Positions 3,594 through 17,025 of a DNA stretch of 64,000 nt are shown one piece after another. The position numbers and the translations under genes were made by a program. The notes beneath the pieces were generated by a model. That model saw only the letters and a list, made by a program, of their open reading frames with translations. It did not search any database and was not told the DNA's origin. How positions within the stretch are numbered: position 1 is the stretch's first letter; each line of letters starts with the position of its first letter. Where the stretch lies: positions 32,001 through 96,000 of the forward strand of contig DAHWIF010000011.1 in NCBI GenBank assembly GCA_027345565.1, read 5' to 3'. Origin of the DNA: Candidatus Micrarchaeota archaeon. GTDB taxonomy: Archaea > Micrarchaeota > Micrarchaeia > Micrarchaeales > Micrarchaeaceae.

Positions 3594-6386
3594 TTATTTG
3601 GACAGCAATTTCTTTATAACGTAGTTAAGTATGCCATTTGACCTGTAATACTCCATCTCTATCGGCGTATCTATCCTGCTCATGATCTCTGCATCAGCCT
3701 CTGCCCCGGTATCGCTTCGAGTGTATCTCATTTTCACCATGTCTCTGGGCTTCATACCGTCATTCAGCACTATAGTGATCGGTTTCGAGAAGTCCACCTT
3801 TAGCGTCTGTGCGTCTTCTCCTGCCTTGAACTGCAACGGGATTATGCCCATCCCTACGAGGTTGCTCCTATGGATCCTTTCGAAGCTCTTTGCAACCACA
3901 GCCTTCACCCCGAGCAGCATGGGCCCTTTCGCGGCCCAGTCGCGTGAGCTTCCTGAGCCGTATTCCGATCCGGCAAGAACGATGAGCGGCACTCCTTCAG
4001 CCTTGTACCGCATCGCAACATCGTATATCGTACCCTTCTGTGCATCAGGATAGTGCAAAGTGAAACCCCCTTCCTTGCCAGGTAGCATGATATTCTTTAT
4101 GCGGCTGTTCGCGAATGTGCCCCTCATCATGACCTCGTGGTTGCCTCGCCTCGACCCGTAGCTGTTGAAGTCTGCTGGCTGCACCCCATGCTCAATCAGG
4201 TACATGCCTGCCGGGCTAGCTGCGCTTATCGCCCCTGCAGGCGATATGTGGTCCGTAGAGATGGAGTCGCCGAAGGCGGCAAGCACCATTGCGTTCTTTA
4301 TAGGCTCGACGCTCCCTTTGCTCCTTGGGTCGAAGCCCTCGAAGAACGGCGGCTGCCTTATGTATGTGCTGTCTCGCTCCCATGCGTACATCTTGCCTGC
4401 CGCTGCCGGCAGCTTGTTCCAATACGGATTGACATCGTATATGTGGCTGCCATACTCCTTCTCGAATATGTCCTCGCTTATGACCCTATCCATGACCTCC
4501 TTTATCTCTGCCTGCGTAGGCCAGATGTCCTTTAAGTAGACATCCTCCCCTTTGTCGTTCTTCGCCAACGGCTCCTTTGTGAGGTCCTTGAGCACGGTGC
4601 CGGCTATGCCGAAAGCCACCAGTAGGGGCGGTGACATCAAGTAATTCGCCCTCACATCCGTATGTATCCTCGCCTCGTAGTTCCTGTTGCCGGACAACAC
4701 CGATGCAACGGCAAGCTTGTTGGCGTTTATCGCCTCGCTCTGCTTCTCGATGAGTGGGCCGCTGTTTCCTATGCAGGTTATGCAGCCGTATCCTACCAGC
4801 TCGTAGCCTAGCTTCTCCAGGGGCTCTATGAGACCTGCCTTCTGCAGGTATCTCGTGACTACCCGCGAGCCTGGGCCCAGGCTCGTTTTCACCTTCCTTG
4901 TGTCGACCCTGAGACCCTTCTCAACCGCCTTCTTTGCGAGAAGACCGGCGCCTATCATCACCGATGGGTTACTGGTATTGGTGCAGCTGGTTATCGACGA
5001 TATGACGACATCGCCATCCGACAGGGTAATCTCGTAACCGTCATCATACCTTATCTTCACAGATTTTTGGTTGTGGTGGAGCGGCGCGTCCTTCATATGG
5101 CTGCTTCCTACCGCCATGCTCTCGTCAGACCATCTCGTATAATCCTTCGCATTCATCCTATTTGGGTCGCCTTTGCCATCTTCCAGGAATATTCCTATGA
5201 ACTCCTCTTTTATCCTGCCAAGCGGGATCTGCTCCTTCGGCTGCGCGGGCCCTGAGACGCTCGGCTCTATCGAACCCAGGTCAACATCGAGAGTATCGCT
5301 GTATTCGACTTTGCTATAGTCGATGTCAAGCATACGCTGCTCTGTATAGTACCTCCTGATGAGCTCTATCTGCTCCGCGCTCCTGCCGGTCACCCTCATG
5401 TAATGCAGCGTCTCTTCATCCACCGGGAATATCGCAATGGTTGCGCCATACTCCGGGCACATGTTAGAGAGCGTTGCGCGGTCTGGAAGCGACAGATTCC
5501 TTAACCCGTCTCCGAAGAACTCAACGAACATGTTGACAACCCCCTTATCCCTTAGCAGCCTTGTCAGCGTTAATGCGAAGTCTGTCGCCGTGACCCCGTC
5601 CTTAAGGCTGCCTGACAGGCGCACACCGAGCACCTTCGGAGTTGTGAACGAGACGGGCTGGTCAAGGAGCGCCGCTTCTGCCTCTATGCCACCTACGCCG
5701 AATCCGACTATGCCCAAGCCGTCTATCATCGTGGTGTGTGAATCGGTGCCGACAAGCGTGTCCGGATAAGCCACATAGTTGCTGCCGTCCTGGCGCATTG
5801 TGACGCACGTCGCCAGGTACTCTAGGTTCACCTGGTGGCATATGCCCGCAGAAGGAGGGAACACCCTGAAGTTCTTAAGCGCATGGCTCGCCCATTTCAG
5901 CAGCTTATACCTCTCCGCATTCCTCTCTATCTCCTTCTCCTGGTTTATCTCCAATGCCTGTATGACATTGAATGCATCGACCTGCACGGAATGGTCTATT
6001 ATCAGGTCTGTCGGTATTATTGGCTGTGCCGCGTCAGGTGACCCGCCATTTTTCGTTATGTAGTCCCTTATCGCCGCTATGTCAACCACCGCAGGCACAC
6101 CCGTAAAGTCCTGCATCAGTATCCTTGACACCTTGAACGGCACGTCCCTGTCGTCTGGGATCTTTGCATTCCAATTGGCTAACGCTTTCACGTCCTCTTC
6201 GGTGACCGCCTTGCCATCGAGGTTCCTTATAAGCGATTCCAATACAATGCGTATGGAGAACGGCAGACCCGATGTCCTGCCTATCCCTAGCTCCTCCAAC
6301 GCCGGTATCGAATAGTATAGCACCCTTTTCCCATTAAGGTCGAAGCTTCTCAGAGCCGTTTCCTTCATGTTGCCGATACCAGCCAT
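3594..6386 (-). CDS. acnA: Aconitate hydratase A
   Basis: MQDFTGVP, GTDSHTTM, ITSCTNTSN, GCITCIGNSG, GSGSSRDWAAKG. Confidence 0.97.
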   Translation of the reverse strand: MAGIGNMKETALRSFDLNGKRVLYYSIPALEELGIGRTSGLPFSIRIVLESLIRNLDGKAVTEEDVKALANWNAKIPDDRDVPFKVSRILMQDFTGVPAVVDIAAIRDYITKNGGSPDAAQPIIPTDLIIDHSVQVDAFNVIQALEINQEKEIERNAERYKLLKWASHALKNFRVFPPSAGICHQVNLEYLATCVTMRQDGSNYVAYPDTLVGTDSHTTMIDGLGIVGFGVGGIEAEAALLDQPVSFTTPKVLGVRLSGSLKDGVTATDFALTLTRLLRDKGVVNMFVEFFGDGLRNLSLPDRATLSNMCPEYGATIAIFPVDEETLHYMRVTGRSAEQIELIRRYYTEQRMLDIDYSKVEYSDTLDVDLGSIEPSVSGPAQPKEQIPLGRIKEEFIGIFLEDGKGDPNRMNAKDYTRWSDESMAVGSSHMKDAPLHHNQKSVKIRYDDGYEITLSDGDVVISSITSCTNTSNPSVMIGAGLLAKKAVEKGLRVDTRKVKTSLGPGSRVVTRYLQKAGLIEPLEKLGYELVGYGCITCIGNSGPLIEKQSEAINANKLAVASVLSGNRNYEARIHTDVRANYLMSPPLLVAFGIAGTVLKDLTKEPLAKNDKGEDVYLKDIWPTQAEIKEVMDRVISEDIFEKEYGSHIYDVNPYWNKLPAAAGKMYAWERDSTYIRQPPFFEGFDPRSKGSVEPIKNAMVLAAFGDSISTDHISPAGAISAASPAGMYLIEHGVQPADFNSYGSRRGNHEVMMRGTFANSRIKNIMLPGKEGGFTLHYPDAQKGTIYDVAMRYKAEGVPLIVLAGSEYGSGSSRDWAAKGPMLLGVKAVVAKSFERIHRSNLVGMGIIPLQFKAGEDAQTLKVDFSKPITIVLNDGMKPRDMVKMRYTRSDTGAEADAEIMSRIDTPIEMEYYRSNGILNYVIKKLLSK

Positions 6387-6393
6387 GATACCA

Positions 6394-7326
6394 TCAGAGC
6401 ATCGAGTCCACTTGCTTTGTAAGCGCTTTAACCTTCTCTGCGGACACTTTCAGCGCCGTGTTCTCCTCCTCGGAGAGCTTTAACTGTATTATGCGCTCCA
6501 TCCCATTGCTGCCGAGTACAACCGGCACACCCATAAATATGCCGCTCATGCCGTATTCGCCGTCTAGGAACGCCGCGCATGGCAGCACCTCCTTCTTGTC
6601 CTCCAGCATCGATGTTATCATCTGGAGTAACGAGGATGCCGGGGCGTAGAATGCGCTTGATTCCTTCTCTAGCCTTATTATCTCGGCTCCGCCGTCCCGA
6701 GTTCTCTGTATGAGCTGGTCTATCTTCTCCTTCGGCATAAGCTCCGTGATCGGGGTGCCGTTTACCGTTGAATTGGCCGGCAGCGGCACCATGAAGTCGC
6801 CGTGTCCGCCCAACACCGCTGCGGACACGCTTTCCACGCTAACCCCCAGCTCCTGCGCTATGAAGGTGCGGAACCTTGCAGAGTCCAGTATGCCTGCCAT
6901 GCCGACAACGCGCTCCCTTGGGAACCCTGTCACCTTCTTCGCCAGGTAGACCATCTCATCGAGCGGATTGGTAAGCACTATGAGCTTGCTCTCAGGCGCG
7001 TTGGCCTTAACCTGACCGCATATCCCGCCAACTATCTGGGCGTTTGTCTTGAGCAGATCGTCCCTGGACATCCCTTCTTTCCTGGGCATCCCTGCCGTTA
7101 TGACCACTATCTCGCTGCCCTTTATGTCGGCATAATCCGATGTTCCTCTCACTTTTGTGTCGAATCCATCGATAGGGCCGCTCTCCATTATGTCTAGGGC
7201 TATGCCCTTCGCTGTGCCCTCGGTCCTGTTCCAAATCACTATGTCGCAGATGTCCTTCCTCGCTAGAAGCTCCGCTGTAGTTGAGCCTACCCTGCCCGCG
7301 CCTATGATAGTCACCTTCTTCCTCAA
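6394..7326 (-). CDS. mdh: Malate dehydrogenase (LDH-like)
   Basis: GAGRVG, TAGMPRKEGMSRDDL, LDSARF, GGHGD. Confidence 0.95.
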   Translation of the reverse strand: MRKKVTIIGAGRVGSTTAELLARKDICDIVIWNRTEGTAKGIALDIMESGPIDGFDTKVRGTSDYADIKGSEIVVITAGMPRKEGMSRDDLLKTNAQIVGGICGQVKANAPESKLIVLTNPLDEMVYLAKKVTGFPRERVVGMAGILDSARFRTFIAQELGVSVESVSAAVLGGHGDFMVPLPANSTVNGTPITELMPKEKIDQLIQRTRDGGAEIIRLEKESSAFYAPASSLLQMITSMLEDKKEVLPCAAFLDGEYGMSGIFMGVPVVLGSNGMERIIQLKLSEEENTALKVSAEKVKALTKQVDSML

Positions 7327-7330
7327 TCGC

Positions 7331-8482
7331 TCATCTCTGGTCTATTGGCACGTATTTCAGGCCTGTCTGGCCGGTGTACTGCTCAAGAGGCCTTATCAGC
7401 TTGTTCTCCTCCCAATACTCCAGCATGTGGGCGCACCACCCCGATATCCTGCTTGCGGCGAAAAGCGGCGTGAAAAGCTCCACCTTTATGCCGGCGCTCA
7501 CATAGACGGGCCCTGCGAAGAAATCCACGTTCGGCCAGATTCCGTGGCTCTGGCCGAGTTTCTCTATCATGAGCCTCTCGCCTCTCAGCGCTATCTCCGT
7601 TAGCCTGCGCACCTCCTCCGACGAGCTGTTCTGCAGCGATAGCAGATAGCTCTTTATCACCCTTGCTCTTGGGTCGTACGCCTTGTAGACCCTGTGCCCG
7701 AATCCCATTATCCTCTTCTTGCCTGCGAGCGCATCGTTTATGTACTGCTCAGTGTTGCCCGGGTCGCCTATCGCATACATCATCCTCAACGCCTCCTCGT
7801 CAGCCCCTCCATGTAGCGGCCCTTTGAGCGTCCCTATTCCTGAAGTGACAGAGGAATACAGGTCAGAAAGAGTAGACCCGGTTACAAGCGTGGAGAATGT
7901 CGAGGCGTTGGAGCTGTGCTCCGCCTGCAGGATGAACATCATCTCGACAGGCTTGTGTTGCTCTGGTGTAGGTTTCGTCCCGTTAAGCATGTATAGGAAG
8001 TTCTCCGAAAGAGAGAGGCTGGCGTCAGGGCTGACGTAGCTCCCTCCATTCCTGTAGCGGCCTATCGTAGCCACGATGCTCGACAGTTTTGATATGAGCC
8101 TTGCCGTTTTCCTGAGATTGGCTTCCTTTGATGAATCGGACGCCTCGTTGTCATAGAGCGATAGCGATGAAACTGCGGTCCTTAGGACATCCATGGGGTC
8201 CGCTTTCGCAGCGTTGCTTGCGATCATCTCCACGATGCCTTTCGGCAGGTCCCTCTCTGCCTTGAGTTGTGCGGCGAAACTGTCGAGCTCTGCCCTTTTC
8301 GGCAGCTTCCCATATATCAAGAGGTATGCGACCTCCTCGTAGCTCGAGCTGCCTGCGAGCTCCTCTATAGGATAGCCACGGTAATAGAGTTTCCCAGCTA
8401 CGCCGTCGACTTTGCATATGCTGCTCTCGGCGACGTATACGCCGTCCAGTCCCTTGTGCACTATCGGTGCCTCGTCGGCCAT
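7331..8482 (-). CDS. gltA: Citrate synthase
   Basis: GKLYYRGY, GPLHGGA, MGFGHRVYK-DPR, NVDF. Confidence 0.95.
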   Translation of the reverse strand: MADEAPIVHKGLDGVYVAESSICKVDGVAGKLYYRGYPIEELAGSSSYEEVAYLLIYGKLPKRAELDSFAAQLKAERDLPKGIVEMIASNAAKADPMDVLRTAVSSLSLYDNEASDSSKEANLRKTARLISKLSSIVATIGRYRNGGSYVSPDASLSLSENFLYMLNGTKPTPEQHKPVEMMFILQAEHSSNASTFSTLVTGSTLSDLYSSVTSGIGTLKGPLHGGADEEALRMMYAIGDPGNTEQYINDALAGKKRIMGFGHRVYKAYDPRARVIKSYLLSLQNSSSEEVRRLTEIALRGERLMIEKLGQSHGIWPNVDFFAGPVYVSAGIKVELFTPLFAASRISGWCAHMLEYWEENKLIRPLEQYTGQTGLKYVPIDQR

Positions 8483-8594
8483 CCCTCCACAACATTATAT
8501 GGCACTAAACGCATTTATTCTTTGGTGTTATTATACCGAAATATTTAAATATTTACTTGTGTATAATATATTTATTTAAGTATAAGGTGCTGGG
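8483..8594. promoter_or_regulatory. AT-rich divergent promoter region between gltA and the pilin operon
   Basis: Several TATA-like boxes (ATTTAAAT, TATAATATA, TTTATTTA) between divergently transcribed genes. Confidence 0.55.
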
Positions 8595-8954
8595 TTGGGT
8601 TTGATTAAGGTAGCTAAGTGCGTGCTTGTGCCGATGACTGTGGCGCTGATCCTGCTTGGGACGGCTCACGGCGCATCACCACAAATGACACTGCAGATCG
8701 TTACAGAGCTTGGGAATGTGAAGAGCATACTGGGGCAGGTTGGTCCGGTACTCAGCGCCGTGCTTTTCATAATAGCCGGCGTGTTCTATGCCATTGGACA
8801 GGTGATGCCGCCGGACAAGAGGGCCAACTTCCACAGCACCGCCATAAACATAATTATAGGGGCGATTGTGGTCGGGGTCCTGAGCGTGGCTTCTACCTCT
8901 CTTGCGACAGCCTCATCGCACCTGCTCAGCAACATGACCTCGAACTCGCTTTAG
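8595..8954 (+). CDS. VirB2/TrbC (CedA1-like) pilin
   Basis: Signal-peptide-like N-terminus ending AHG-A, an amphipathic helix, then two hydrophobic helices separated by a short basic loop (MPPDKRANF). Confidence 0.65.
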   Translation: MGLIKVAKCVLVPMTVALILLGTAHGASPQMTLQIVTELGNVKSILGQVGPVLSAVLFIIAGVFYAIGQVMPPDKRANFHSTAINIIIGAIVVGVLSVASTSLATASSHLLSNMTSNSL

Positions 8955-8961
8955 TGGTGGA

Positions 8962-9987
8962 TTGTTAGGGTATGACATAGCCGTCAGCGTGATAGCCATA
9001 ATGATAAGCATAGGCGGAATAATCCTGGGCCTCGGCTATGCGATGGACAACAGCAGGCTCAAAAACTTTGGGAGGGACGAGCTTATCCAGTCCTTCATCA
9101 ACGGTGCGATGGTTGGTGCGCTCTTCCTCTTCTTTAGCCCGGCTGGGCTCGGCACCGGCATCATAAACGGGATTATTTCCGGCGCGCATGCCAACGCGTC
9201 GTGCAGCAGCTATATGAGCACTAACTATGCAATATGCTTCGCATACAACTATCTGGTCGGAATAAAGCCTGTCACTATAAACAACGCCAGCTATCCCTCC
9301 CTGCTCGACTCGTCCCTGGAGCTGCTGCTGCCTGCATCCGGGATATATGTCACGCTGGGCCTCATATCCTCTGTGCAGCTTGGATTCGGCGTTGCATCGA
9401 TATCTTTTGCCAACATACTTACACCCGTGTTGTCGCAAGAAGACTTCATAATAACCGGGCTCACGTTTGCGATAATAGGCATATATGCGCAGTCTGTGCT
9501 GCTGGGCGTAATCGCCGTAGTGGCGGTGCCGTTGCTCCTGCCTGTAGGCCTGGTGCTTAGGACCTTCTATCCTACAAGGAGGCTTGGCGGCACGGCCATC
9601 GCGATAGCCATAGGCCTCTTCGCCATTTTCCCTTTGACCTACCTGCTTGATGCGCAGATAACGGCCAACTATTCCGGTGCGATAAACCAGGCGGCGCTGA
9701 GCGCATTCTCGGTGCAGGCGAACAGTTTGGAAGGCGGCGTGTTCTCGCTAGGTGCGCTATCAGCAAACGCGCTATCCGGGCCGCTTCAGGGGCTTGCATC
9801 TGGGATATCGGGGCTGGTAAGCTCCTTCTCGGGCTTGATAAAGGAGCTGCTGAGCTGGCTTGCCCTCCTTATAGTGCAGGTTTTCTTCTTCCCTGTGCTC
9901 AGCGTCGTCCTGACAATAACGGCGATACGCGAGCTCGCCAAGATATTGGGCTCAGAGGTATCCTTTGGCAGATTTGATGTGTTCTAG
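8962..9987 (+). CDS. Polytopic membrane protein, VirB6/CedA-like
   Basis: About 6-7 hydrophobic segments; LLPVGLVLRTFYPTRRLGGTAIAIAIG is reminiscent of CedA/VirB6; lies between the pilin and the ATPase. Confidence 0.55.
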   Translation: MLGYDIAVSVIAIMISIGGIILGLGYAMDNSRLKNFGRDELIQSFINGAMVGALFLFFSPAGLGTGIINGIISGAHANASCSSYMSTNYAICFAYNYLVGIKPVTINNASYPSLLDSSLELLLPASGIYVTLGLISSVQLGFGVASISFANILTPVLSQEDFIITGLTFAIIGIYAQSVLLGVIAVVAVPLLLPVGLVLRTFYPTRRLGGTAIAIAIGLFAIFPLTYLLDAQITANYSGAINQAALSAFSVQANSLEGGVFSLGALSANALSGPLQGLASGISGLVSSFSGLIKELLSWLALLIVQVFFFPVLSVVLTITAIRELAKILGSEVSFGRFDVF

Positions 9988-9994
9988 TGAGCAG

Positions 9995-10738
9995 ATGAGA
10001 TTAGATATAGACAGGTACATGCCGCATGCCCTCGTAGTGGCGTGCTTTGTCGCGATGGCCTTGGGTGCCGCAACGCTAAACCCATACGTGGTATCATTTG
10101 CAGCTGCAGTGTCACTGTCAGCGCTCATTGTTCATAAGATGTGGGGGATAATAGAGGCGAGGATCTTTGAGGGCACAAACCTTGTGCAGGTTTTCGGCGG
10201 TTTTGAGATCAGCGGCAACAGGTCGGCTATAATCTCGAGGGCGGCGAACCGCTACACAGCCACGTCGGCAGCCAGAGTGGTGTCGCTGGGTTCAACAACA
10301 ATAGACAGGGACAAAATAGAGAACATGATAGCGCACACGAACTTCCCGTTCAAGCTCGTCATGCACGTAGAGAGGGTAGGCGTGGCAAGGCTGCTCGAGC
10401 GCCTCCAGACAAAAAAGGGCATGAGGGAGATAGAGCTGTCGCGGATAGAGAGGCCGGGATCTGGGAGGGGGCTCGTAGCTGCTAACAGGCTGAAGAATGA
10501 GATATCGCTTCTGGAGCATGAGATAGAGGGGATAAAGAGCGGTGGCATGCCGCTGCGGCTCGCTTACTACATAATGACCAGCGCTGTTTCCGAAAGCAGG
10601 CATAGGGCAGAGGAGGAGGCGCTAATGCAGATAAGGGGCCTCTCGTCAGAATTCGATGCTGCGTTCGGGGCGAAGTCGTCTTTGCTATCTGGGGAGGAAA
10701 TGGTAAAGATGATGAGATTTGACTCGGCGGTGTCATGA
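9995..10738 (+). CDS. Membrane-anchored protein resembling VirB3 plus the VirB4 N-terminal region
   Basis: Two N-terminal TM helices, a coiled coil, and YYIMTSA-S..EEALMQIRGL..LLSGEEM; ATGA overlap with the ATPase. Confidence 0.45.
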   Translation: MRLDIDRYMPHALVVACFVAMALGAATLNPYVVSFAAAVSLSALIVHKMWGIIEARIFEGTNLVQVFGGFEISGNRSAIISRAANRYTATSAARVVSLGSTTIDRDKIENMIAHTNFPFKLVMHVERVGVARLLERLQTKKGMREIELSRIERPGSGRGLVAANRLKNEISLLEHEIEGIKSGGMPLRLAYYIMTSAVSESRHRAEEEALMQIRGLSSEFDAAFGAKSSLLSGEEMVKMMRFDSAVS

Positions 10739-11847
10739 TTATCAAAACAGACTCGAAGGCGGTTGCGCTGCAGTGCACGGTGATCAGCCAGTCGGAGCCT
10801 GAAGCCGACATGCAGTGCGATGGAGTGTACTTAGGAAAGACGCTGAAGTACAGGTTGCCCTTTTTCCTTGACAACACAAAGCTGGTAAACCCGCATGTAT
10901 CTGTAATCGGAATGACAGGGTCTGGGAAGACCTACCTGGTGAAGAGCCTGCTCGCAGGGCTTAACATATGGCGTGATTACAGCGTACTTATCATCGATTG
11001 GAATTCTGAATATACGGATGTGGTGGAGTTCCTAGGCGGGAGGGTATGGAAGGTTGCGTGCGTTGCGGACCTGCCGGCGATAGAACATTTGGTAGAAGGA
11101 GTGGAAAGCGTCGACCTCTCGGCCGCGCGCGGGGACACAGAGAAGGTGGAGATTGCCAAGAGCGTACTGTCCGCGGTGAGGAGGTTCGTTCTTTCCCTGA
11201 AGCCGGGCTATGATACGAAAAGGGTGCTTGTGGTTGACGAGGCCTGGAAGCTTGCTAACCTGGCGCAGGACCTTGGGAAGCTCTTCAGGGAGGGCAGGAA
11301 GTTCGGCCTTATGGTCGTAGCCGCGACGCAGCTTGTCGGTGACGTGAACAATGAGGTGCTGTCCAATGCTGCGTGCAGCTTCGTGTTCAGGTTGCAGGGA
11401 TCAGATAACTTGAACGGATTGGTGTCGTCTGGACTTTTGGGGCAGGACTACACATTAGCGGCGCAAACGCTCGACAGGGGCAGCTGCATCGTCTCTTTGA
11501 TATACAATAAGGGAAGCTCCCCGAAAAGGTTCATGATTGGGAGAGTGCACGGATTTGATTTCAGGACTTATGCTATATGTGGTGGTTCAATGACTGTGAA
11601 AGTAAGCGTGAGGAAGCTGAGTTCGGTTCTGGAGAGCATGGGATTTGGGAGTGACACCGCGATGCGCATAGAGAAATTCTTCGCAGAGAACTCCGGCGGA
11701 GTCGATATCGCGCAGCTCGTTGGCTTCCTGTTCGGCGCAGGGTTGGCGCGTGCGGATGTGTTTGCTTTCTTAAGGTCCTTAGGAGTGAGGGATCGCTCCA
11801 TAGCGATTGCCATAGAGTCTCTCAAGGGTGTTGCGCTTGAAAAGTGA
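10735..11847 (+). CDS. HerA/VirB4-family ATPase (DUF87 type)
   Basis: NPHVSVIGMTGSGKT (Walker A), IIDWNSEY, VLVVDEAW (Walker B), REGRKFGL..ATQ. Confidence 0.9.
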   Translation: MIIKTDSKAVALQCTVISQSEPEADMQCDGVYLGKTLKYRLPFFLDNTKLVNPHVSVIGMTGSGKTYLVKSLLAGLNIWRDYSVLIIDWNSEYTDVVEFLGGRVWKVACVADLPAIEHLVEGVESVDLSAARGDTEKVEIAKSVLSAVRRFVLSLKPGYDTKRVLVVDEAWKLANLAQDLGKLFREGRKFGLMVVAATQLVGDVNNEVLSNAACSFVFRLQGSDNLNGLVSSGLLGQDYTLAAQTLDRGSCIVSLIYNKGSSPKRFMIGRVHGFDFRTYAICGGSMTVKVSVRKLSSVLESMGFGSDTAMRIEKFFAENSGGVDIAQLVGFLFGAGLARADVFAFLRSLGVRDRSIAIAIESLKGVALEK

Positions 11848-12466
11848 TGGTCATTTCTGCTCTGCGTTCAACGTTGACGCCAGGCTAAAGTGCAGCATGC
11901 AGCAGCTCAGGGGCAGGATGGAGAACAATGCAGCGCTCAGGCTTCTGAGCCGCGGTACGCGCTTAAGGTACGAGGTTATCGGCGTACCAGAGAAACAGCT
12001 GCTGGAGCTGGGCCAAGACGGGATAAGGTTCATTTTTTACTTCTCGAAGCCCACCGATATGGTTTTCTCTGCGGGGCTTATGCGCCTGTTTGCCATCCTG
12101 GCCATGGTCGATGACCTTTACGATATAAGACTGGGCGCGGTGTACAGCTATGTTATAGATGCGCTTGCCAGGCATTATCCTGTATATGAATTGGACAGGA
12201 GGGATAGCGGAGATGTCAAACGCCTGTCAAAGGAGGTAGACGCGCTGACATTTGCGAATTCACGCCTATCACACGATATTTACAGCTTGGAAGAGGCGAA
12301 GAGGGAGCTCGCTGCGGAGCTGGGCGCTTGCAAGGAATTCTGCGCAAAGGTCATAGACACAATGTCGCGCAGGGACAAGGACGCACCGGACAGCATCGGC
12401 AGAGCGTTTGGGATAGGCACGGGGCTTGCAGAAAAGGTAAGTGCAATCGTTAGGGGTGGGAGATGA
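11828..12466 (+). CDS. Hypothetical protein with C-terminal coiled coil
   Basis: Overlaps the ATPase stop; heptad pattern in VKRLSKEVDALT..LEEAKRELAAEL. Confidence 0.7.
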   Translation: MLRLKSDGHFCSAFNVDARLKCSMQQLRGRMENNAALRLLSRGTRLRYEVIGVPEKQLLELGQDGIRFIFYFSKPTDMVFSAGLMRLFAILAMVDDLYDIRLGAVYSYVIDALARHYPVYELDRRDSGDVKRLSKEVDALTFANSRLSHDIYSLEEAKRELAAELGACKEFCAKVIDTMSRRDKDAPDSIGRAFGIGTGLAEKVSAIVRGGR

Positions 12467-13107
12467 TGCAGTATGCGTTTGGCCTATTTTACACTCTGGC
12501 TGGAGCCATTGCATGCCTTGCTTTGGTAGCCGTTTCAGACTGGGGATATTCGCGTGCCTCCATCTTCATCTATGAGGACGCGGACGTGGTGAAATTAGAA
12601 AGGTTCTCTCTGCGCGACCTTATGGAATCAATAAGGTTTGCAAGCACATGTCTTGATGGCTGCTCGGTGGTGAAGCACATGGCAGTGACAGAGGACGATG
12701 TAGCGCGTTCGTTGCATAATCGCTTTGCTTTTGCTGCAGGAGCCAAAAATCTTTCCAGGGACGAAATCCGCTATGCATTGAGGGTCGCAGAGGGGCTTGG
12801 GCTGATAGGGCTTGATGGGCGCTACATAGAGTGCGATGGTTTCGGGAGGCATTCTTCTCTCGCGAGGCACATGTATGAAGAATGGGTGCGCTCTGGTAGC
12901 GGGATTCCACCAGGCACAGCCGGAAAGCTGCTCAAGGAGAATAGGGTATTGATGCCTAATGGCTGGCTTGGGCATGGAGCTGGCGTGATGGCACTGGTAG
13001 GCGATGCAGATGAGCGCTTGGATTCTTTGCTGCGCACATTTTCGAAGGACAGAGCTGCATTACTGCTTGACCTTATAAACTGCAACATAATGGTGATAGT
13101 GTGCTAG
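12463..13107 (+). CDS. Hypothetical protein with N-terminal membrane anchor
   Basis: ATGA overlap with the upstream gene; hydrophobic first 25 aa. Confidence 0.65.
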   Translation: MMQYAFGLFYTLAGAIACLALVAVSDWGYSRASIFIYEDADVVKLERFSLRDLMESIRFASTCLDGCSVVKHMAVTEDDVARSLHNRFAFAAGAKNLSRDEIRYALRVAEGLGLIGLDGRYIECDGFGRHSSLARHMYEEWVRSGSGIPPGTAGKLLKENRVLMPNGWLGHGAGVMALVGDADERLDSLLRTFSKDRAALLLDLINCNIMVIVC

Positions 13108-13289
13108 GCGTGCTATCGTTTGCTGTAAGGATCGGAATCCTATGCGGTGTGGTGCTGCTTAATGCGGCTTGTATATCATGCTTGGTGCCATTTTTTGTAG
13201 GCTCTGGTGCACATAGGAGATTCGGCATCGCAGGGGCATCGCTTTTGGTTTTTTCGTTGACCGTCGGCATGGCGTTTAAGGTCGTCTAG
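13101..13289 (+). CDS. Small 2-TM membrane protein
   Basis: 62 aa with two hydrophobic helices; overlaps the upstream stop. Confidence 0.45.
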   Translation: MLGVLSFAVRIGILCGVVLLNAACISCLVPFFVGSGAHRRFGIAGASLLVFSLTVGMAFKVV

Positions 13290-13600
13290 ACCTCAACCAT
13301 TACATCGTCGCCGTCTATTTTCGTCCTGTAGGTCTTCACTTTGAAGCTTTGGTCCCAGGCATCAGGAGCCGCTTTGCCGGTAGTTATGTCGTAGGTCATG
13401 CCATGCCACGGGCACATTATAACATTGCCATTGAGGTCGCCATCAGAAAGCGGCCCGCCTTGGTGTGGGCAGTGATCCTGTATTGCATAAACCTTTCCGT
13501 CTATCTTGAAAAGGGCTATTTCCTGGTCGTTTACAGATACCATTCTACCCTTTCCGTCCTCAAGCTCGCTCACCTTGGCTACATTCACGAATCCGGCCAT
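13286..13600 (-). CDS. Rieske-type [2Fe-2S] ferredoxin
   Basis: CPHQG and CPWHG Rieske motifs. Confidence 0.93.
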   Translation of the reverse strand: MAGFVNVAKVSELEDGKGRMVSVNDQEIALFKIDGKVYAIQDHCPHQGGPLSDGDLNGNVIMCPWHGMTYDITTGKAAPDAWDQSFKVKTYRTKIDGDDVMVEV

Positions 13601-13632
13601 TTATCCACAATGAGATATGCTAGAGGTGCTTC

Positions 13633-14379
13633 TTAAAGTTTTGTGCTTGCATCTGGTAAAGGCGTTCCCATATTTCTTTCTACGATCCCCCTGAAGAATA
13701 TCAACGGCCTGCGGTCCTGTTGCACCGATGCCCGTAGCTCGTCATCTGTTAGCCGTATAAGGTTCCTGATGCTTCCATCATTTGGTGCGAGCGTGCTCTC
13801 GCTGACCAGCCTATGCACATCCATATTCATGCACATTAGGGTTGCATGCCTATGTGCATCGCTAAGGTACCTTATCGCGGTGTTTCTGTCGACTCTCTCT
13901 TCTGACAGCTCCATCTCTATAAGATGGCTGGCGGCTATTGCTGAGCCCCATCTTGGGTCTATTTTAGTCACCCCGTAATGGAGCATTAGGAATGCCGTAC
14001 TTAACGGGGCGAGCAGCACCTCGGTTATCCTCTGTGTTCCCCTTCCGCGGTTCGGGTATGACAGTTCAGTGAAGTGATTTACGTATGCAAATGCGTATGC
14101 GGCCAGCGCATACATGACAGCTGTTTGGGGCAGTGCCTCGATGGTCGACTGCAAACCTGCAGGCTCTGCAGAGCTGTTCATGTCCCGTATGCTAGATACG
14201 CTCTGCTCAACCCTCCTGTATATATGATGCATCTTTTTAGGGTGCTCGCGCAGCATTCCTGCAATGCTTGATGCGACGTTTTCCTGATTGGCTATCCTAT
14301 GATATGGAGCGCGTGGGGTGGTTGGCTCTAACACGATGTTATTATAGAGGTCTGTGAGATAAGCGCTTGCTGCAGCCAT
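13633..14379 (-). CDS. Hypothetical helical protein (orphan-like)
   Basis: 248-aa ORF filling the gap in a run of minus-strand genes; no motif recognised. Confidence 0.65.
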   Translation of the reverse strand: MAAASAYLTDLYNNIVLEPTTPRAPYHRIANQENVASSIAGMLREHPKKMHHIYRRVEQSVSSIRDMNSSAEPAGLQSTIEALPQTAVMYALAAYAFAYVNHFTELSYPNRGRGTQRITEVLLAPLSTAFLMLHYGVTKIDPRWGSAIAASHLIEMELSEERVDRNTAIRYLSDAHRHATLMCMNMDVHRLVSESTLAPNDGSIRNLIRLTDDELRASVQQDRRPLIFFRGIVERNMGTPLPDASTKL

Positions 14380-14410
14380 CTACCCGGATTTTGATAAATA
14401 ACGCAAGTAT

Positions 14411-15310
14411 TTAAGCCTTGTCCCGTTTACGGTTTTGCATGTGCCGTGACCAGAATCCGCTGTGCTTTATTATCGGCGTAAATACGGAGGTTATCGGCCT
14501 TTTGCGCACATTAAACAAAAAATTGTTTATCTCCGATATCTCTTCTTCGGTGAACCGCCACCCAGATGCCTCTGCATTCTCTATCGCGTGGTGGCGATCG
14601 CTAGCCTTGGGTATCGCAACAACCTGCTTTTTTGAAACCAGCCAGTTAAGAGCGACCTGAGCCGCGCTCTTGCCGTGATCCTCGCCTATCGATTCCAGCT
14701 TCGCCTTTAGCTGCTCATACTTCTTGCTGAAAATGGCGCCCCTCGCAAGCGGGCTATACGCCATGATGGTTATTTTTTCCCTTGTACAGAAGTCCATCAG
14801 CTCCTCCTCTATATCTCTGACCAGTATACTGTACTCGACCTGGTTGCACACTATCTCGCCGCTCTTCAGGGCGCCCTGTGCCTCCTTTAGCTCCTTGACA
14901 TCGAAGTTACTAACACCGATGTGGCGTATCTTTCCGTCTTTCTTGAGCTGCTCCATCGCACGCATCGTCTCGGCTATCGGGATGCTGTGGTTCGGCCAGT
15001 GCAGCTGGTACATATCTATTTGCTTTACGCCTAGCTTCCTGATGCTCGCGTTGCATGAGCGTATGACATCGTCATACCTGAAGTTATGTGGTGACACCTT
15101 TGTGGCGATGAATACGTTTTCCTGTCCTTTTATCGCCTCCCCCACCATTTCTTCGTTGCCGTACATCTCTGCGGTGTCGACGAGGCTGCTCCCGTGCTCT
15201 ATCGCTGCCCTTATGGCTTCGATGTCTGAAGCTCCGTTAAGCATCTTCCACGTTCCGATGCCTATTTCAGGTACCTTCTCATCGGTGGTGCCGAGTTGCT
15301 TGTACTCCAT
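14411..15310 (-). CDS. Aldo/keto reductase
   Basis: IGIGTW, DTAEMYG, ATK, LHWP, IGVSNF, AYSPL. Confidence 0.95.
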   Translation of the reverse strand: MEYKQLGTTDEKVPEIGIGTWKMLNGASDIEAIRAAIEHGSSLVDTAEMYGNEEMVGEAIKGQENVFIATKVSPHNFRYDDVIRSCNASIRKLGVKQIDMYQLHWPNHSIPIAETMRAMEQLKKDGKIRHIGVSNFDVKELKEAQGALKSGEIVCNQVEYSILVRDIEEELMDFCTREKITIMAYSPLARGAIFSKKYEQLKAKLESIGEDHGKSAAQVALNWLVSKKQVVAIPKASDRHHAIENAEASGWRFTEEEISEINNFLFNVRKRPITSVFTPIIKHSGFWSRHMQNRKRDKA

Positions 15311-15327
15311 ATCATGCCTCTATCGAC

Positions 15328-17025
15328 TTAGTGTGCGCGTGCCATTACCCTTCCATTTACGCCATGTTTGAGCGTTATGCCTCTAGAGGCCACTGAAAGC
15401 CTTAGAGAGCTGTTATAAGCTTGCTGCGCCCCTTGCGTGGGATATCTTCCGGTTATGCATCCTGTGCAGATCTCATCCCCAAGTCCGATCGCTTGGTGCA
15501 GCCCAGCTACAGTCTGGTAACATAGGCGGTCTGCGCCTATCAAGTTTCTTATCTGCTCGTTGTCCATATGCGTGGCAATCAGCTCCTTCCTTGTTCGCAT
15601 GTCTATGCCATAGGGGCAGTATCCTATTACTGGAGGCTCTGTGATCCATACCTCGACCCTTGCTGCGCCTGCCTTCCTGAGGAGGTTTAGTGGCACGTTT
15701 ATTGTTGTGCCCCTTACGATGCTGTCATCCACCAAAATCACGGACCTGCCCATCACTGCATCAGGAACTTCGTAAAACTTCAGGTCTACCGCCCTGTTTC
15801 GCTCTTCCTGCGTCGGCAACGTGAAAGTCCTGTGTATGAACACGTTTCTAGTCAATGCCGCAACAACGGGAATCCCCAGCTCATTGGCTATCCCGTCCGC
15901 TGCGCTCCTTGCACTTTCTGGTACAGGCACGACAATCCACTCCTTCTGGTTTTTCTTCATGGATTCTGATCCGTATTCTACCGCCATTTTCTGTCCGGCC
16001 GCAAACCTGATCGCGTACATGCTTTTGTGCCCCTCAGGGCCGTATGAGAGCGGCGCGGCGCTTGGTTTGTCAACCAGGCTTGACGGAAGGCTGAAGTATA
16101 TAAGTTCGAAATGGCAGTGCGCCGGCTTTTGCGCGTTTAATACCTTTTGAGTAAACCTTGCTTGCGATGCCCCATCCACAAATATCATTTCTCCGTTTGA
16201 TACCATCCTTGAGAATTCAAACCCTGCTGAATGGAATGCCACAGTCTCTGACGCGAACATTACGCCGTTGGTCAAGGTAGACAGCCCCATCGCCAGCGGA
16301 CGTATGCCGTGCGGATCCCTGAGAACTGCCAGCTCGCCTTGCCCTCTTGAGGTCAACACAGCAAGGGCATATCCGCCTTCGAACTGTTTGGTTACCTCCG
16401 CAAGCGCGTACTCGAGATCCTTGCCGCGTTTTAGGTGATTGGCTATGAATGCGCCAAGAATCTCAGTGTCAACCTTGCTGTGGAACTTATGACCCTCTTT
16501 CAACGAACCCCTGTGGGCTTCCGGATCTACAATCGTACCGTTAAAAGCTATTGCCATCTGCCAATCGTTGATATCAAACACCATAGGCTGCGCATCCCTC
16601 ACCCCCGGAGAGGCTGACGTCGTGTACCGCACGTGTCCTATGCCCATAGTGCCGGATAACCGCTCGAGAGGGCCTTTTTTCCTAGCACGCTCCTCCATTT
16701 CACTGAACTTTGTGACCAGCCCTTTGACCAGCTCTACGTTTATCTCGTGCCCACCATTATTATCGAAAGTTGCTATGCCTGCCGAATCCTGCCCTCTGTG
16801 CTGCAGCCTGAGCAGCGCCCTATAAATCTCGTATGAGGCGTGACCGTTCTCCGGAGGGAACATGTAGTATTCGAGCTGGTCGGCTGAGCGTTCCCTGCGC
16901 ATCCTGTTGGTGTAAAGCTCATCTCCGAATGCTACTCCTACGACACCGCAATGGTCCTTAGGGGTGTTTCCATCTTGCCGGTGGGTGTTTGCTCCCGCTC
17001 TCCGGTCTACAGAAATTCGTTTCAT
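15328..17025 (-). CDS. purF: Amidophosphoribosyltransferase (divergent, Fe-S type)
   Basis: HCGVVG (Ntn cysteine after a propeptide), LQHRGQDSAGI, GHVRY, RDPHGIRPL, VDDSIVRGTT, CPYGID, CTGC. Confidence 0.9.
   Translation of the reverse strand: MKRISVDRRAGANTHRQDGNTPKDHCGVVGVAFGDELYTNRMRRERSADQLEYYMFPPENGHASYEIYRALLRLQHRGQDSAGIATFDNNGGHEINVELVKGLVTKFSEMEERARKKGPLERLSGTMGIGHVRYTTSASPGVRDAQPMVFDINDWQMAIAFNGTIVDPEAHRGSLKEGHKFHSKVDTEILGAFIANHLKRGKDLEYALAEVTKQFEGGYALAVLTSRGQGELAVLRDPHGIRPLAMGLSTLTNGVMFASETVAFHSAGFEFSRMVSNGEMIFVDGASQARFTQKVLNAQKPAHCHFELIYFSLPSSLVDKPSAAPLSYGPEGHKSMYAIRFAAGQKMAVEYGSESMKKNQKEWIVVPVPESARSAADGIANELGIPVVAALTRNVFIHRTFTLPTQEERNRAVDLKFYEVPDAVMGRSVILVDDSIVRGTTINVPLNLLRKAGAARVEVWITEPPVIGYCPYGIDMRTRKELIATHMDNEQIRNLIGADRLCYQTVAGLHQAIGLGDEICTGCITGRYPTQGAQQAYNSSLRLSVASRGITLKHGVNGRVMARAH

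Follow-up and report, generated by a model that had tools for sequence, protein, structure and literature searches.

What kind of machine is encoded by seven tightly packed genes, a pilin-like gene and an ATPase gene among them, in the chromosome of a Micrarchaeota archaeon? The cluster lies in the window analysed here, a stretch of 64,000 nt from contig DAHWIF010000011.1 of a Candidatus Micrarchaeota genome, and a literature search found no paper describing this operon. The original prediction, made from the DNA alone, had read it as a machine of the Ced or T4SS type, an interpretation that our results support in part. Our analyses indicate that the cluster very probably encodes a T4SS-derived machine. 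Our favoured reading, which we consider probable, is that of a domesticated and vertically inherited T4SS derivative, of the same kind as Ced and Ted but built differently.

The ORF listing of the window contains the same seven closely spaced or overlapping genes that had been predicted on one strand, all co-directional on the + strand between 8595 and 13289 (Table 1). Successive junctions from o1 to o7 are +7, -23, -4, -20, -4 and -7 nt, so that the sole non-coding gap of the cluster is the 112-nt spacer separating o1 from the divergent upstream gene. The AT-rich region anticipated ahead of the cluster is found in this spacer as a run at about 8530-8585, and a putative promoter can be placed there, with an AAGGTG sequence at 8584-8589 directly 5' of the TTG start of o1. 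At the other end, the stop codon of o7 overlaps that of a convergent Rieske ferredoxin gene.

Table 1. Positions of the predicted features of the cluster in the window.
Feature	Coordinates	Strand	Description
Putative promoter and leader	8530-8594	+	AT-rich; read from sequence
o1	8595-8954	+	119 aa, TTG start
o2	8962-9987	+	341 aa, TTG start
o3	9965-10738	+	257 aa, TTG start
o4	10735-11847	+	370 aa, ATG start
o5	11828-12466	+	212 aa, GTG start
o6	12463-13107	+	214 aa, ATG start
o7	13101-13289	+	62 aa, GTG start

The first gene was expected to encode a pilin-like protein with a signal peptide and two transmembrane (TM) segments, and profile searches agree with this expectation. The o1 protein scores 26.7 bits against the Pfam T4SS_pilin model (cut-off 26.6) and matches TrbC/VirB2 with an E-value of 4.9e-4. 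Among 21 orthologues, T4SS_pilin was detected in 18 and TrbC in 13, and no other membrane family matches more than 2 of them. The top PDB match of the o1 profile is a weak one, to TrwL/VirB2 of R388 (E 0.26). Hydropathy analysis shows a hydrophobic N-terminus followed by two segments (residues 42-73 and 77-107); the protein thus has a Sec-type signal peptide and two hydrophobic helices, with the basic loop PPDKRANFH between them, and its C-terminus bears an N-x-T sequon. Both cleavage of the signal and glycosylation may occur. By its sequence, o1 is a VirB2/TrbC-type conjugative pilin precursor. The cluster could also make no pilus, o1 and o2 being ordinary subunits of an ATP-driven membrane complex whose likeness to T4SS reflects distant shared ancestry. 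The position of the o1 score at the Pfam cut-off, the weakness of its match to TrwL and the lack of a recognisable relative of known function for o2 are compatible with this explanation, as is the long-held view that T4SS of monoderm bacteria are devoid of pili (10.64898/2025.12.18.695078). It is nevertheless improbable, since the pilin match is reproduced in most orthologues, the two-helix hairpin, basic loop and Sec signal correspond to the layout described for VirB2 and TedC (PMC9905601), and no other gene of the cluster is as well conserved as o1 (51-89% identity), as expected for the subunit of a polymer.

The ATPase is encoded by o4, which matches the Pfam families DUF87 (1.8e-15), AAA_10 and TrwB_AAD_bind. 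Its motifs, named here in textbook terms, had been described as intact, and they are conserved as well: G59, G62, G64 and K65 of the P-loop (GMTGSGKT), E169 (VVDEAW) and R185, E186, R188 and K189 (REGRKFG) are invariant in 19 orthologues, and D168 is nearly so. CedB is the best NCBIfam family in 19/19 orthologues (best E 2e-23), always below the cut-off, and models of VirB4, TraC and TrbE also match orthologues. All family scores stay far under the curated cut-offs; for the o4 protein of the window, CedB reaches 70 bits, against a cut-off of 700 bits, versus 24 bits for helicase_HerA. A tblastn search against plasmids returned 270 matching records, 201 of which are typed as conjugative, with the matches falling in DUF87/VirB4-like genes of monoderm plasmids. 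On these sequence data, o4 can be classified as a HerA-clade, VirB4-CTD-like P-loop ATPase. The PDB profile search ranked HerA proteins of defence and repair systems first (1.7e-19 to 1.2e-16), the VirB4 C-domain reaching only 7.3e-10, and o4 is also matched by the PADLOC HerA model (1.4e-14) and by HerA_antiphage (best 1.3e-19). These scores would fit a HerA-type defence or DNA-repair module with membrane genes adjacent by chance, an explanation that we judge very improbable. None of the six partner proteins matches a PADLOC model at E<=0.01, and NurA was not found in the assembly. In addition, o4 lacks the HerA N-terminal region (its residues 28-116 align to 133-224 of 8wiv), its N-domain is supplied by o3, which matches VirB4 and not HerA, and in every locus translational coupling ties the ATPase to membrane proteins. 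The expectation that this ATPase would group nearer to CedB/VirB4 than to repair HerA is therefore upheld by the comparison of family scores and by the failure to find NurA.

The o4 protein has no N-terminal domain of its own and ends in a C-terminal tail of about 80 aa; in hhalign comparisons, its residues 3-111 align to positions 219-327 of a VirB4-like plasmid protein of 670 aa. The preceding gene, o3, had been taken to encode a TM-anchored coiled-coil protein. The membrane anchor is retained, with hydrophobic segments within residues 18-63; two N-terminal helices are followed by an alpha/beta domain, and o3 is better read as the membrane-anchored, VirB4-NTD-like N-terminal half of the ATPase. 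When the AF2 model of o3 (pLDDT 77.5) was compared with the PDB by Foldseek, TrwK/VirB4 of R388 accounted for eight of the ten best matches, although the match is modest (best E 1.1e-3, prob 1.00, TMq 0.33). The single CedB sequence match, in 1/19 orthologues, is at chance level. The predicted complex of o4 with residues 72-257 of o3 obtained a score of 0.65, against 0.00 for the best of three controls, a mark reached by 58/80 solved complexes and 2/110 mismatched pairs. At least 48% of contacts recur between runs, and the pLDDT of the partner is at least 70. This pass may reflect remembered likeness, as VirB4 structures have been solved and o3 and o4 represent the two halves of one split gene. 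The stop of o3 overlaps the start of o4 by 4 nt, and the two were never found fused among 92 ORFs. Together, o3 and o4 look like one split CedB/VirB4-type ATPase. Their layout matches the published architecture of CedB and CedD, which consists of a TM segment, a VirB4-like NTD and a HerA-clade ATPase, VirB3 and VirB8 being reported as absent from archaea (PMC11868833), and this correspondence counts in favour of a T4SS-derived machine.

The gene between the pilin and the ATPase occupies the place of VirB6, CedA or TedA. The multi-TM protein predicted there was recovered, o2 being polytopic by hydropathy and its AF2 model (pLDDT 71.8) being all-helical with nine helices. The more specific claim that it is VirB6-like fits in position and topology only. 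No match to o2 was found in Pfam or NCBIfam, VirB6 is not among the PDB profile matches, even with a 74-sequence profile, and the model yielded no meaningful Foldseek match and no VirB6. Alignments by hhalign with plasmid TrbL and with a 471-aa transfer protein were not significant, and o1 and o2 do not show the N-terminal likeness between pilin and VirB6 that has been reported for Ced and VirB (hhalign Prob 0.2%). A search of a library of 1.84 billion proteins retrieved 2170 cluster representatives of the o2 family at E<=1e-3, and ten distant members have no Pfam match. The o2 protein is the founder of a large unannotated family. The single lead comes from the ESM Atlas, where 23% of the members of one look-alike cluster carry PF27251 CedA1.

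The last three genes had been proposed as further subunits of the cluster, and an iterative HMM search for their orthologues over 80 related loci identified them as conserved members: o5 lies directly after o4 in 65/80 loci, o6 directly after o5 in 46/80 and o7 directly after o6 in 19/80. The soluble o5 protein (212 aa) contains a coiled coil, may carry a C-terminal helix-turn-helix, and accompanies the ATPase as a conserved partner. Searches of Pfam and the PDB gave no consistent family for o5 itself. Most relatives carry a second operon, expanded and paralogous to this one, whose last gene is a homologue of o5 (hhalign prob 88%, E 3.1e-6) and has matches to winged-helix families (PCI 5.3e-5). 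The o6 protein has one N-terminal hydrophobic segment (residues 4-27), evolves fast (mean column identity 20%) and gave no PDB or Pfam match. The o7 protein has two hydrophobic segments, and strain A_DKE has a 56-aa, two-segment ORF at the same position. Any likeness to CedA2 or VirB3 would be one of size and position alone.

Synteny across Micrarchaeota had been set beforehand as a test. The comparison set comprised the best 80 related loci, from bins nearly all titled Micrarchaeota or Micrarchaeia, which supports the original assignment of the DNA to a Micrarchaeon. Of these loci 68 were informative, their sequence continuing for 3.5 kb or more beyond the pilin gene. In all 68, o1, o2 and o4 follow each other in this order on one strand within 4 kb. 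The three genes were also colinear in 20/20 loci of a first set, and the order pilin, membrane protein, ATPase is kept in the cultivated strain A_DKE. Because gene order is conserved in all informative loci, the cluster is more than a chance association. Of the 177 other genomes sampled from the order, 143 carry a strong o2 orthologue and 34 do not (counted from a table that takes in the unpublished genomes G058 and G207). Among the 34 is a genome of the same genus that is 94% complete and consists of a single contig; some lineages do without the cluster, which is therefore dispensable.

The metabolic character of the flanks, noted originally, was verified by searches for the two adjacent genes, citrate synthase upstream (E 1.3e-110) and Rieske-type ferredoxin downstream (E 7.7e-15). 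From reading the translations alone, we take the other flanking genes to be aconitase, malate dehydrogenase (MDH), aldo-keto reductase and PurF. The cluster could conceivably be what is left of a conjugative plasmid or element that had integrated, rather than a host system. This would agree with the conjugative plasmids that carry the nearest bacterial matches of o4, with the absence of the cluster from some lineages and with the variation of the flanks outside the genus, citrate synthase and MDH flanking only 6/68 loci. We consider it extremely improbable. The prediction of a chromosomal cluster free of relaxase, integrase and att site withstood all searches: profiles of Phage_integrase, Relaxase (PF03432) and the coupling protein VirD4/TraG (PF02534) found nothing in the whole assembly (600 kb, 84% complete), no direct repeats flanking the cluster were found, and no tRNA was found in positions 1-25000 of the window. 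The G+C content of the cluster (0.49-0.57) is the same as that of its flanks, and all seven reading frames are intact. Moreover, genomes of the same genus share the same flanks and an identical insertion site (L013, L014, L016-L019), and identity declines gradually with taxonomic distance across three families. The operon is vertically inherited.

Assembled into a domesticated T4SS derivative, these parts suggest the following model. The o1 precursor would be directed to the membrane by its Sec signal, cut by signal peptidase I and held there as a two-helix hairpin, while o2 would form a membrane platform or channel. The o3 and o4 proteins would make up one membrane-anchored ATPase, o3 providing the anchor and VirB4-type N-domain and o4 the HerA-clade motor. 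This ATPase would extract pilin from the membrane, assemble it into a conjugative-type pilus or a short conduit, and then drive a polymer, most likely DNA, through o2, with o5 as the cytoplasmic adaptor of the motor and o6 and o7 as membrane accessory subunits. The data show which genes are present and conserved, the family of the pilin, the superfamily and motifs of the ATPase, its split and the lack of mobile-element marks; pilus assembly, the role of o2, the direction of transport and the link to a host are what we infer in this scheme, and the import of DNA or nucleotides, protein delivery and contact dependence proposed originally are likewise inferences. DNA as the substrate is suggested by the family of the motor, no relaxase or coupling protein having been found; the chances that the machine moves DNA fall slightly short of even, and import of DNA, as in Ced, is only a tentative possibility.

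The same T4SS-derived apparatus could instead attach the cell to its host, or pass proteins, lipids or metabolites between the two in either direction, which we regard as unlikely, if worth serious attention. Neither the cluster nor the assembly was found to contain a relaxase, a coupling protein or a DNA-processing gene, and a comparable role has been put forward for the T4SS clusters of the ultrasmall Patescibacteria, which mostly lack a relaxase, are thought to be co-opted for other functions and are cited as essential for epibiotic growth (PMC12102498). The contrast between fast-evolving o6 and the strongly conserved pilin fits a partner-specific surface component, and cryo-ET studies report that Micrarchaeota and their hosts are joined by pili-like connections and protein nanotubes (PMC4110969, PMC11329633). 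However, the nanotubes are assigned to the host and not to the symbiont (PMC11329633), Ced and Ted, the sole archaeal relatives studied experimentally according to the available accounts, move DNA (PMC9905601, PMC11868833), the motor lies within the FtsK-HerA superfamily of DNA pumps, and the cluster is accompanied by no effector-like gene.

A tiny host-dependent archaeon would possess a pared-down relative of the bacterial conjugation apparatus, encoded by a stable chromosomal operon that it has in common with most related genomes, and with it a concrete candidate route for exchanging DNA or other molecules with its neighbours. Among known systems, HerA-NurA repair and HerA anti-phage modules have an ATPase of the same fold and with the same motifs, and o4 scores best on them in the PDB sequence search, but here no NurA, Sir2, DUF4297 or other effector partner accompanies the ATPase, which has membrane proteins and a pilin instead. 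The best plasmid matches of o4 are the VirB4-like genes of monoderm MPF-FATA conjugation systems. The T4SS of Patescibacteria resembles the present cluster in its ultrasmall, host-dependent cells, reduced VirB4-centred cluster, VirB2-like pilins and, mostly, absence of relaxase (PMC12102498). Both belong to another domain of life, where VirB4 is a single protein of about 670 aa; the plasmid examined also bears VirB6/TrbL, VirB8-like, hydrolase and VirD4 genes, which were not found here. In the nanohaloarchaeal SPEARE proteins, also from a DPANN lineage, a T4SS-type ATPase is proposed to act at the host interface, but its VirB4/TraG-like domain is fused to a giant adhesin-like surface protein (PMC10266531), and that study mentions neither a pilin nor an o2-like gene, in contrast to the compact seven-gene operon with a pilin reported here.

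Compared by description, the Ted system of Thermoproteales (TedC, TedA and TedB) is likewise chromosomal and has a VirB2-like pilin, whose signal is cut by signal peptidase I, together with a seven-TM VirB6-like protein and a VirB4-like ATPase (PMC9905601). In most genera its pilin and ATPase genes are located at separate places, whereas all parts are translationally coupled here and the ATPase is split and HerA-clade by sequence. The Ced system of Sulfolobales (CedA, CedA1, CedA2, CedB, CedD and CedE) is found in Thermoproteota, not in DPANN. It differs from our cluster, where anchor plus N-domain and motor are two genes, the o4 score is one tenth of the CedB cut-off, o2 has no detectable likeness to CedA, and no named Ced protein corresponds to o5 or o6. 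The Sec signal of o1 also looks cleavable, whereas CedA1 is reported to be unprocessed (PMC9905601). Ced and our cluster are nonetheless both chromosomal, relaxase-less and T4SS-derived, CedB is the top-scoring NCBIfam model for o4, and both combine a small two-helix pilin and a polytopic membrane protein with a membrane-anchored ATPase made of a VirB4-like N-domain and a HerA-clade motor (PMC11868833).

Seven co-directional genes, called here o1 to o7 in their order, occupy positions 8595-13289 of the window. Our ORF list returned them at the predicted coordinates and with overlapping or close junctions, as had been claimed (+7, -23, -4, -20, -4 and -7 nt in succession). The sole non-coding gap of the cluster is a 112-nt AT-rich spacer to a divergent upstream gene, and the 3′ end of this spacer reads AAGGTG, five bases ahead of the TTG of o1. 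The upstream gene encodes a citrate synthase (E 1.3e-110) and the convergent downstream gene, whose stop overlaps the o7 stop, a Rieske-type ferredoxin (E 7.7e-15); both matches bear out the metabolic flanks of the original prediction. Cluster and flanks have the same G+C content, and the GC skew flips sign with the coding strand. The apparent start is TTG (8595, 8962, 9965) or GTG (11828, 13101) in five of the seven genes, starts being chosen from the longest ORF and the alignment, and orthologues often begin likewise. A 31-nt direct repeat of 71% identity (9874-9904 in o2, 10184-10214 in o3) is probably due to chance.

Features of the operon, its flanks and the paralogous operon. Positions without a prefix refer to the window; L129, L130 and L131 are related loci in genomes G010, G009 and G045.
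Feature	Position	Strand	Description	Basis
o1, pilin	8595-8954	+	TTG start	ORF list
o2, polytopic membrane protein	8962-9987	+	TTG start	ORF list
o3	9965-10738	+	TTG start	ORF list
o4, ATPase	10735-11847	+		ORF list
o5	11828-12466	+	GTG start	ORF list
o6	12463-13107	+		ORF list
o7	13101-13289	+	GTG start	ORF list
TCA-cycle block	3594-8482	-	aconitase, malate dehydrogenase, citrate synthase	citrate synthase tool-tested; other two names read from translation
Second flank group	13286-17025	-	Rieske ferredoxin, 248-aa unknown, aldo-keto reductase, amidophosphoribosyltransferase-like	ferredoxin tool-tested; last two names read from translation
Paralogous operon	L130 (G009:C3:88000-107000), 18986-5917	-	also L129 (G010), L131 (G045), G041, G050, G094	o2 profile
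L130 pilin-like gene			120 aa	prob 71%
L130 o2-like genes			six, 348-463 aa	
L130 o3-like genes			two, 278 aa	prob 98%, E 3e-13
L130 ATPase			511 aa, DUF87/TraG P-loop	best NCBIfam CedD, 1.3e-22
L130 o5-like winged-helix protein			homologue of o5	hhalign
About-100-aa ORF directly 3′ of paralogous ATPase	L130:7110-7424 (104 aa), L129:5062-5376, L131:2185-2484	-		o4 profile, E 8e-10 to 7e-8

The assembly that contains the window (contig C4, 32001-96000) amounts to 600 kb in 16 contigs and is 84% complete. A single run, labelled mine drainage metagenome, contains the stretch, and no RNA run was listed for it. In the possible source run one DNA contig covers the stretch in full, and the same study's two metatranscriptome runs yielded no contig on it. 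Short contigs of that DNA run are 85-95% alike to parts of o1, o2 and o5 (window 8808-9364 and 12021-12208), so that related strains seem to co-occur in the sample.

The cluster had been expected to be conserved in relatives, and this proved correct. An alignment built on the o1 pilin gathered 159 related stretches from one-genome-per-species contigs. The best 80 were kept; their titles are almost all Candidatus Micrarchaeota, Micrarchaeia or Micrarchaeaceae, and they include a Mancarchaeum bin and the complete chromosome of the cultivated Candidatus Micrarchaeum sp. A_DKE. The original assignment of the organism to the Micrarchaeota (DPANN) is therefore correct. The order o1, o2, o4 is kept in all 68 of these 80 named loci that have enough sequence, and the citrate synthase flank in only six of the 68. 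Colinearity of o1, o2 and o4 holds throughout a set of 20 fetched loci that represent three families, and o3 was seen in 18 of them. An o4 orthologue (best E <=1.7e-19) is present in 33 of the 41 genomes of the order, that of the window counted, the other eight having a paralogue only (about 1e-13). Strong o2 matches (E <=1e-40) were obtained in 71 of 93, 1 of 1 and 71 of 83 genomes of the three families f1, f2 and f3, but in just 11 of 223 genomes outside these families; these counts cover 401 genomes of the phylum and include the unpublished genomes G058 and G207. Divergent sets of pilin and o2, sometimes with o3, occur in two other families. Identity decreases from the pilin to o2, then to o3 and o4, to o5 and to o6. 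Two genomes of the same genus lack the operon: G010, which is 94% complete in a single contig, and G001. Citrate synthase, searched at E <=1e-30, was matched in neither. The operon may have disappeared along with the TCA-cycle genes next to it, or these two genomes may constitute a distinct subclade.

These data bear on whether the cluster is, or sits in, a mobile element. In the same-genus genomes it lies at one chromosomal site, between the same citrate synthase/malate dehydrogenase and Rieske/reductase genes. A mobile-element location was rejected on this ground, together with the lack of odd composition, of an integrase, of a tRNA target (no tRNA in window 1-25000) and of direct repeats flanking the operon. 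The whole assembly gave no match to Phage_integrase, Relaxase PF03432 (the one relaxase family searched), VirD4/TraG PF02534 or NurA; at 84% completeness, this does not prove that these genes are absent genome-wide. As neither PF03432 nor PF02534 was found, no relaxase linked to a coupling protein supports a conjugative plasmid or ICE. The prediction that relaxase, integrase and att site are missing thus agrees with our searches of assembly and flanks.

The first gene was predicted to encode a pilin-like protein. The o1 protein scored 26.7 bits against PF18895 (T4SS_pilin, cut-off 26.6) and E 4.9e-4 against PF04956 (TrbC/VirB2). Because a borderline score of a hydrophobic protein needs a control, all 21 orthologues were scanned singly: T4SS_pilin was matched by 18 and TrbC by 13, the sole other families being matched by 2 and 1. 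These recurrent matches place o1 among the VirB2-type pilins. The best PDB match of the o1 profile is TrwL, the VirB2 of R388, although weakly (E 0.26), and an hhalign comparison with a CagC-family protein was not significant. In the alignment, a hydrophobic and variable N-terminus ending with small residues at -3 and -1 precedes two hydrophobic helices that form the invariant core and are linked by GQxxPPDKRANFH, and N-x-T/S is conserved near the C-terminus. By analogy with the topology of VirB2, the signal would be cut by signal peptidase I, the basic loop would be turned towards the cytoplasm at first and towards the lumen of the pilus afterwards, and the tail would face outward, possibly in glycosylated form. 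In the passages of Beltran et al. (PMC9905601) that deal with maturation, signal cleavage is described for TedC and not for CedA1; with its cleavable-looking signal, o1 resembles the pilin of the Ted system and differs from that of Ced.

The second protein is all-helical and polytopic (AF2 pLDDT 71.8) and is encoded between pilin and ATPase, the place of VirB6, CedA and TedA. To this extent it fits its prediction as VirB6-like, but homology was not recovered by profiles, Foldseek or hhalign. It has no Pfam or NCBIfam match, and its best Foldseek hit in the PDB is TTYH2 (E 0.34), with nothing meaningful and no VirB6. PDB searches with profiles of 21 and 74 sequences did not return VirB6 either; their top match was a transmembrane stretch of an ABC transporter (E 0.066, then 2.1e-5), which we ascribe to helical hairpins or serine-rich composition. 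Comparisons by hhalign with plasmid TrbL and with a 471-aa transfer protein were not significant, and that of the pilin with o2, which probed a CedA1/CedA-type likeness, gave Prob 0.2%. The sole lead to the CedA side is an ESM Atlas look-alike cluster (score 0.90, 200 shared features) named 'CedA1 domain-containing', 23% of whose members carry PF27251 CedA1. The negative result is weak evidence, since even the TedA-CedA link, at 13% identity, required profile-profile searches according to the part of Beltran et al. that treats it (PMC9905601). The family of o2 is large: a protein library contained 2170 cluster representatives at E <=1e-3, including 856 that reach 1e-10, the only source names being 'hypothetical' or 'multipass membrane protein', and ten long or distant members gave no Pfam match.

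The ATPase o4 (370 aa) matches the Pfam families DUF87, AAA_10 and TrwB_AAD_bind, and orthologues show no variation in its P-loop, acidic and REGRK residues. CedB was the top NCBIfam model in all 19 orthologues (best E 2e-23), ahead of HerA_antiphage (1.3e-19), TraC and CedD (about 6e-17), the VirB4-like family (2.9e-15) and repair HerA (6e-12 to 1.5e-14). Among these models o4 is therefore closer to CedB than to repair HerA, as the original prediction implied. No NCBIfam score came near its cut-off (70.4 bits against CedB for the o4 of the window, where the curated cut-off is 700), and by this measure o4 is not a CedB orthologue. When PDB sequences were searched, HerA proteins came first (1.7e-19 to 1.2e-16), followed by a VirB4 C-domain (7.3e-10). 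This order does not contradict a Ced-type motor, because the ATPase domains of CedB and CedD had themselves led to a HerA-clade classification, according to the relevant passages of Wu et al. (PMC11868833), which also describe the N-domain of both as a structural homologue of that of VirB4, preceded by a TM segment.

Two other functions of a HerA-like ATPase were considered. The N-terminal region of HerA is a barrel domain. o4 aligns only from residue 133 of a HerA structure, its own N-terminus lying about 30 residues ahead of the P-loop; a HerA-NurA repair complex, to which the PDB ranking might point, was rejected on this basis and because NurA was not found in the 84%-complete assembly. A HerA-based anti-phage system was rejected too, since the PADLOC models match o4 and none of the other six proteins. 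Among PHROGs, o4 alone was matched, by terminase and FtsK-like families.

The Ced/VirB4 reading of o4 nevertheless leaves the protein without an N-domain of the VirB4/CedB kind, for its hhalign alignment to a plasmid VirB4-like protein of 670 aa starts only at residue 219 of the latter. We suggest that this part is provided by o3. The AF2 model of o3 (pLDDT 77.5) consists of two long N-terminal helices followed by an alpha/beta domain, and TrwK/VirB4 chains of R388 make up eight of its best ten Foldseek matches in the PDB (best E 1.1e-3, prob 1.00, TMq 0.33), a modest match reported without aligned ranges in TrwK. HerA chains are absent among the matches listed. o3 had been described as a TM-anchored coiled-coil protein, a view that has to be revised to N-terminal helices plus a domain best matching TrwK/VirB4. 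A CedB sequence match was discounted, as it recurs in only 1 of 19 o3 orthologues, which is chance level, and hhalign of o3 with the plasmid VirB4-like protein was not significant. The predicted complex of o4 with o3 residues 72-257 scored 0.65; of 80 solved complexes 58 attained this mark, as did 2 of 110 mismatched pairs, and the best of three controls scored 0.00. The runs shared at least 48% of contacts, with a partner pLDDT of at least 70. This pass may reflect what the predictor had learned from known structures, because VirB4 structures are solved and the partners would be halves of one protein; the modelled score would thus show likeness more than binding.

A strong o4 match was found in 92 ORFs (from 101 sources, some of which are the same place fetched twice), and none of them also matches o3. 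In the corresponding loci, the o3-o4 junction is -4 in 45 cases, -1 in 9 and 0 in 11. The absence of fusions and the closeness of these junctions indicate that the split is old and that the two genes are translationally coupled. A database search gave no close fused form of at least 661 aa, forms of about 600-650 aa being checked in fetched loci only. Taken together, sequence and model comparisons indicate that o3 and o4 form a VirB4/CedB-type ATPase as a two-gene unit, with a modest match for the N-domain. Nineteen of the 92 ORFs (e.g. in L031 and L032) are 438-465 aa long instead of about 370 and carry an insertion beyond the P-loop region, at about query residues 108-119.

The three downstream genes had been proposed as members of the cluster, and their recurrence agrees with this. 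By tblastn, o5 was detected in 15, o6 in 3 and o7 in 2 of 20 loci; an iterative HMM search over ORFs of the 80 named loci placed o5 directly 3′ of o4 in 65, o6 directly 3′ of o5 in 46 and o7 directly 3′ of o6 in 19. A_DKE (locus L098, positions 5959-10692) retains the full gene order, including a 56-aa two-segment ORF at the place of o7. o5 features a coiled coil and, at its C-terminus, a G-I/V-x motif; o6 has an N-terminal anchor and a very variable sequence, and o7 is small with two hydrophobic segments. No consistent family was found for o5 or o6 in Pfam, PDB or Atlas. The paralogous homologue of o5 (hhalign prob 88%) matches the winged-helix families PCI (5.3e-5), E2F_TDP and TrmB, so that a helix-turn-helix in o5 is suggested through the paralogue only. 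We treat o5 to o7 as putative accessory subunits.

In most relatives, the o2 profile also matched tandem arrays elsewhere in the genome. These belong to a second, expanded operon, in which five or six o2-like genes stand in tandem and are accompanied by one or two genes for pilin-like proteins, a pair of o3-like genes and small ORFs. From its size and place, we take the ORF directly 3′ of the paralogous ATPase for the roughly 80-aa C-terminal tail of o4; if so, the tail would be a module able to stand alone. G010 has this operon and lacks the compact one, and in the assembly of the window the paralogous operon was not found. The existence of both indicates that Micrarchaeota carry a family of such machines. 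The paralogous ATPase of G010 is in two overlapping ORFs (L129:5610-6152 and 6143-6886), possibly through a frameshift or sequencing error, and that of G045 lies inside a 1047-aa ORF (L131:2485-5628), fused to something else. The assembly of the window also encodes a third FtsK-HerA-type ATPase, of 581 aa (contig C9:27551-29296, - strand; locus L033:763-2508), with DUF87, TrwB_AAD_bind and CedB as top NCBIfam model (5.2e-17); the proteins of relatives have about 600 aa. A 732-aa ORF nearby (C9:32695-34893) matches no family.

The operon is best placed with the domesticated type IV secretion machineries of the Ced/Ted kind, as a DPANN variant distinguished by a VirB4-like ATPase in two parts and by three or more additional conserved subunits. 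The Ced system proper imports DNA from cell to cell and is induced by DNA damage, a role that is putative for this operon. The original T4SS-like reading was right in kind, corrected for o3 and unproven for o2 as VirB6. The literature that we searched held no description of this cluster, and the A_DKE co-culture paper (PMC8975820) does not use the words pili, pilin, secretion, VirB or HerA in its main text. The relevant passages of cryo-ET studies report pili-like connections of ARMAN cells with Thermoplasmatales (PMC4110969), as well as 6.7-nm protein nanotubes, attributed to the host, which dock onto a barrel-shaped structure within the envelope of a Micrarchaeon, and thin filaments on the symbiont (PMC11329633); these passages name no genes for the connections and no Ced, VirB or ATPase. 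A more daring proposal, which we regard as improbable, is that Micrarchaeota turned a conjugation machine into a host-interface organelle: both operons would build a symbiont-side pilus or a docking channel for the protein tubes and pili-like connections seen by cryo-ET, through which host DNA or other cytoplasmic polymers would be taken up as food and gene source, and the split motor, the o2 family and o5 to o7 would define a new DPANN-specific T4SS branch.

The operon offers a defined and conserved candidate gene set for the questions of how DPANN archaea, at genome sizes of 0.6-1 Mb, acquire compounds that they do not produce themselves and of what their host connections consist; since it is present in the cultivated A_DKE, these questions become testable. 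A natural VirB4-type ATPase split at the border of N-domain and motor, and a large unannotated membrane family tied to such motors, both bear on the minimal build of type IV systems in single-membrane cells. Related ideas are found in the parts concerned of papers on nanohaloarchaeal SPEARE proteins (PMC10266531) and on the T4SS of Patescibacteria (PMC12102498). With this operon, domesticated machinery of the Ced/Ted kind would extend from Thermoproteota to DPANN, where the operon parallels the T4SS of the likewise ultrasmall Patescibacteria.
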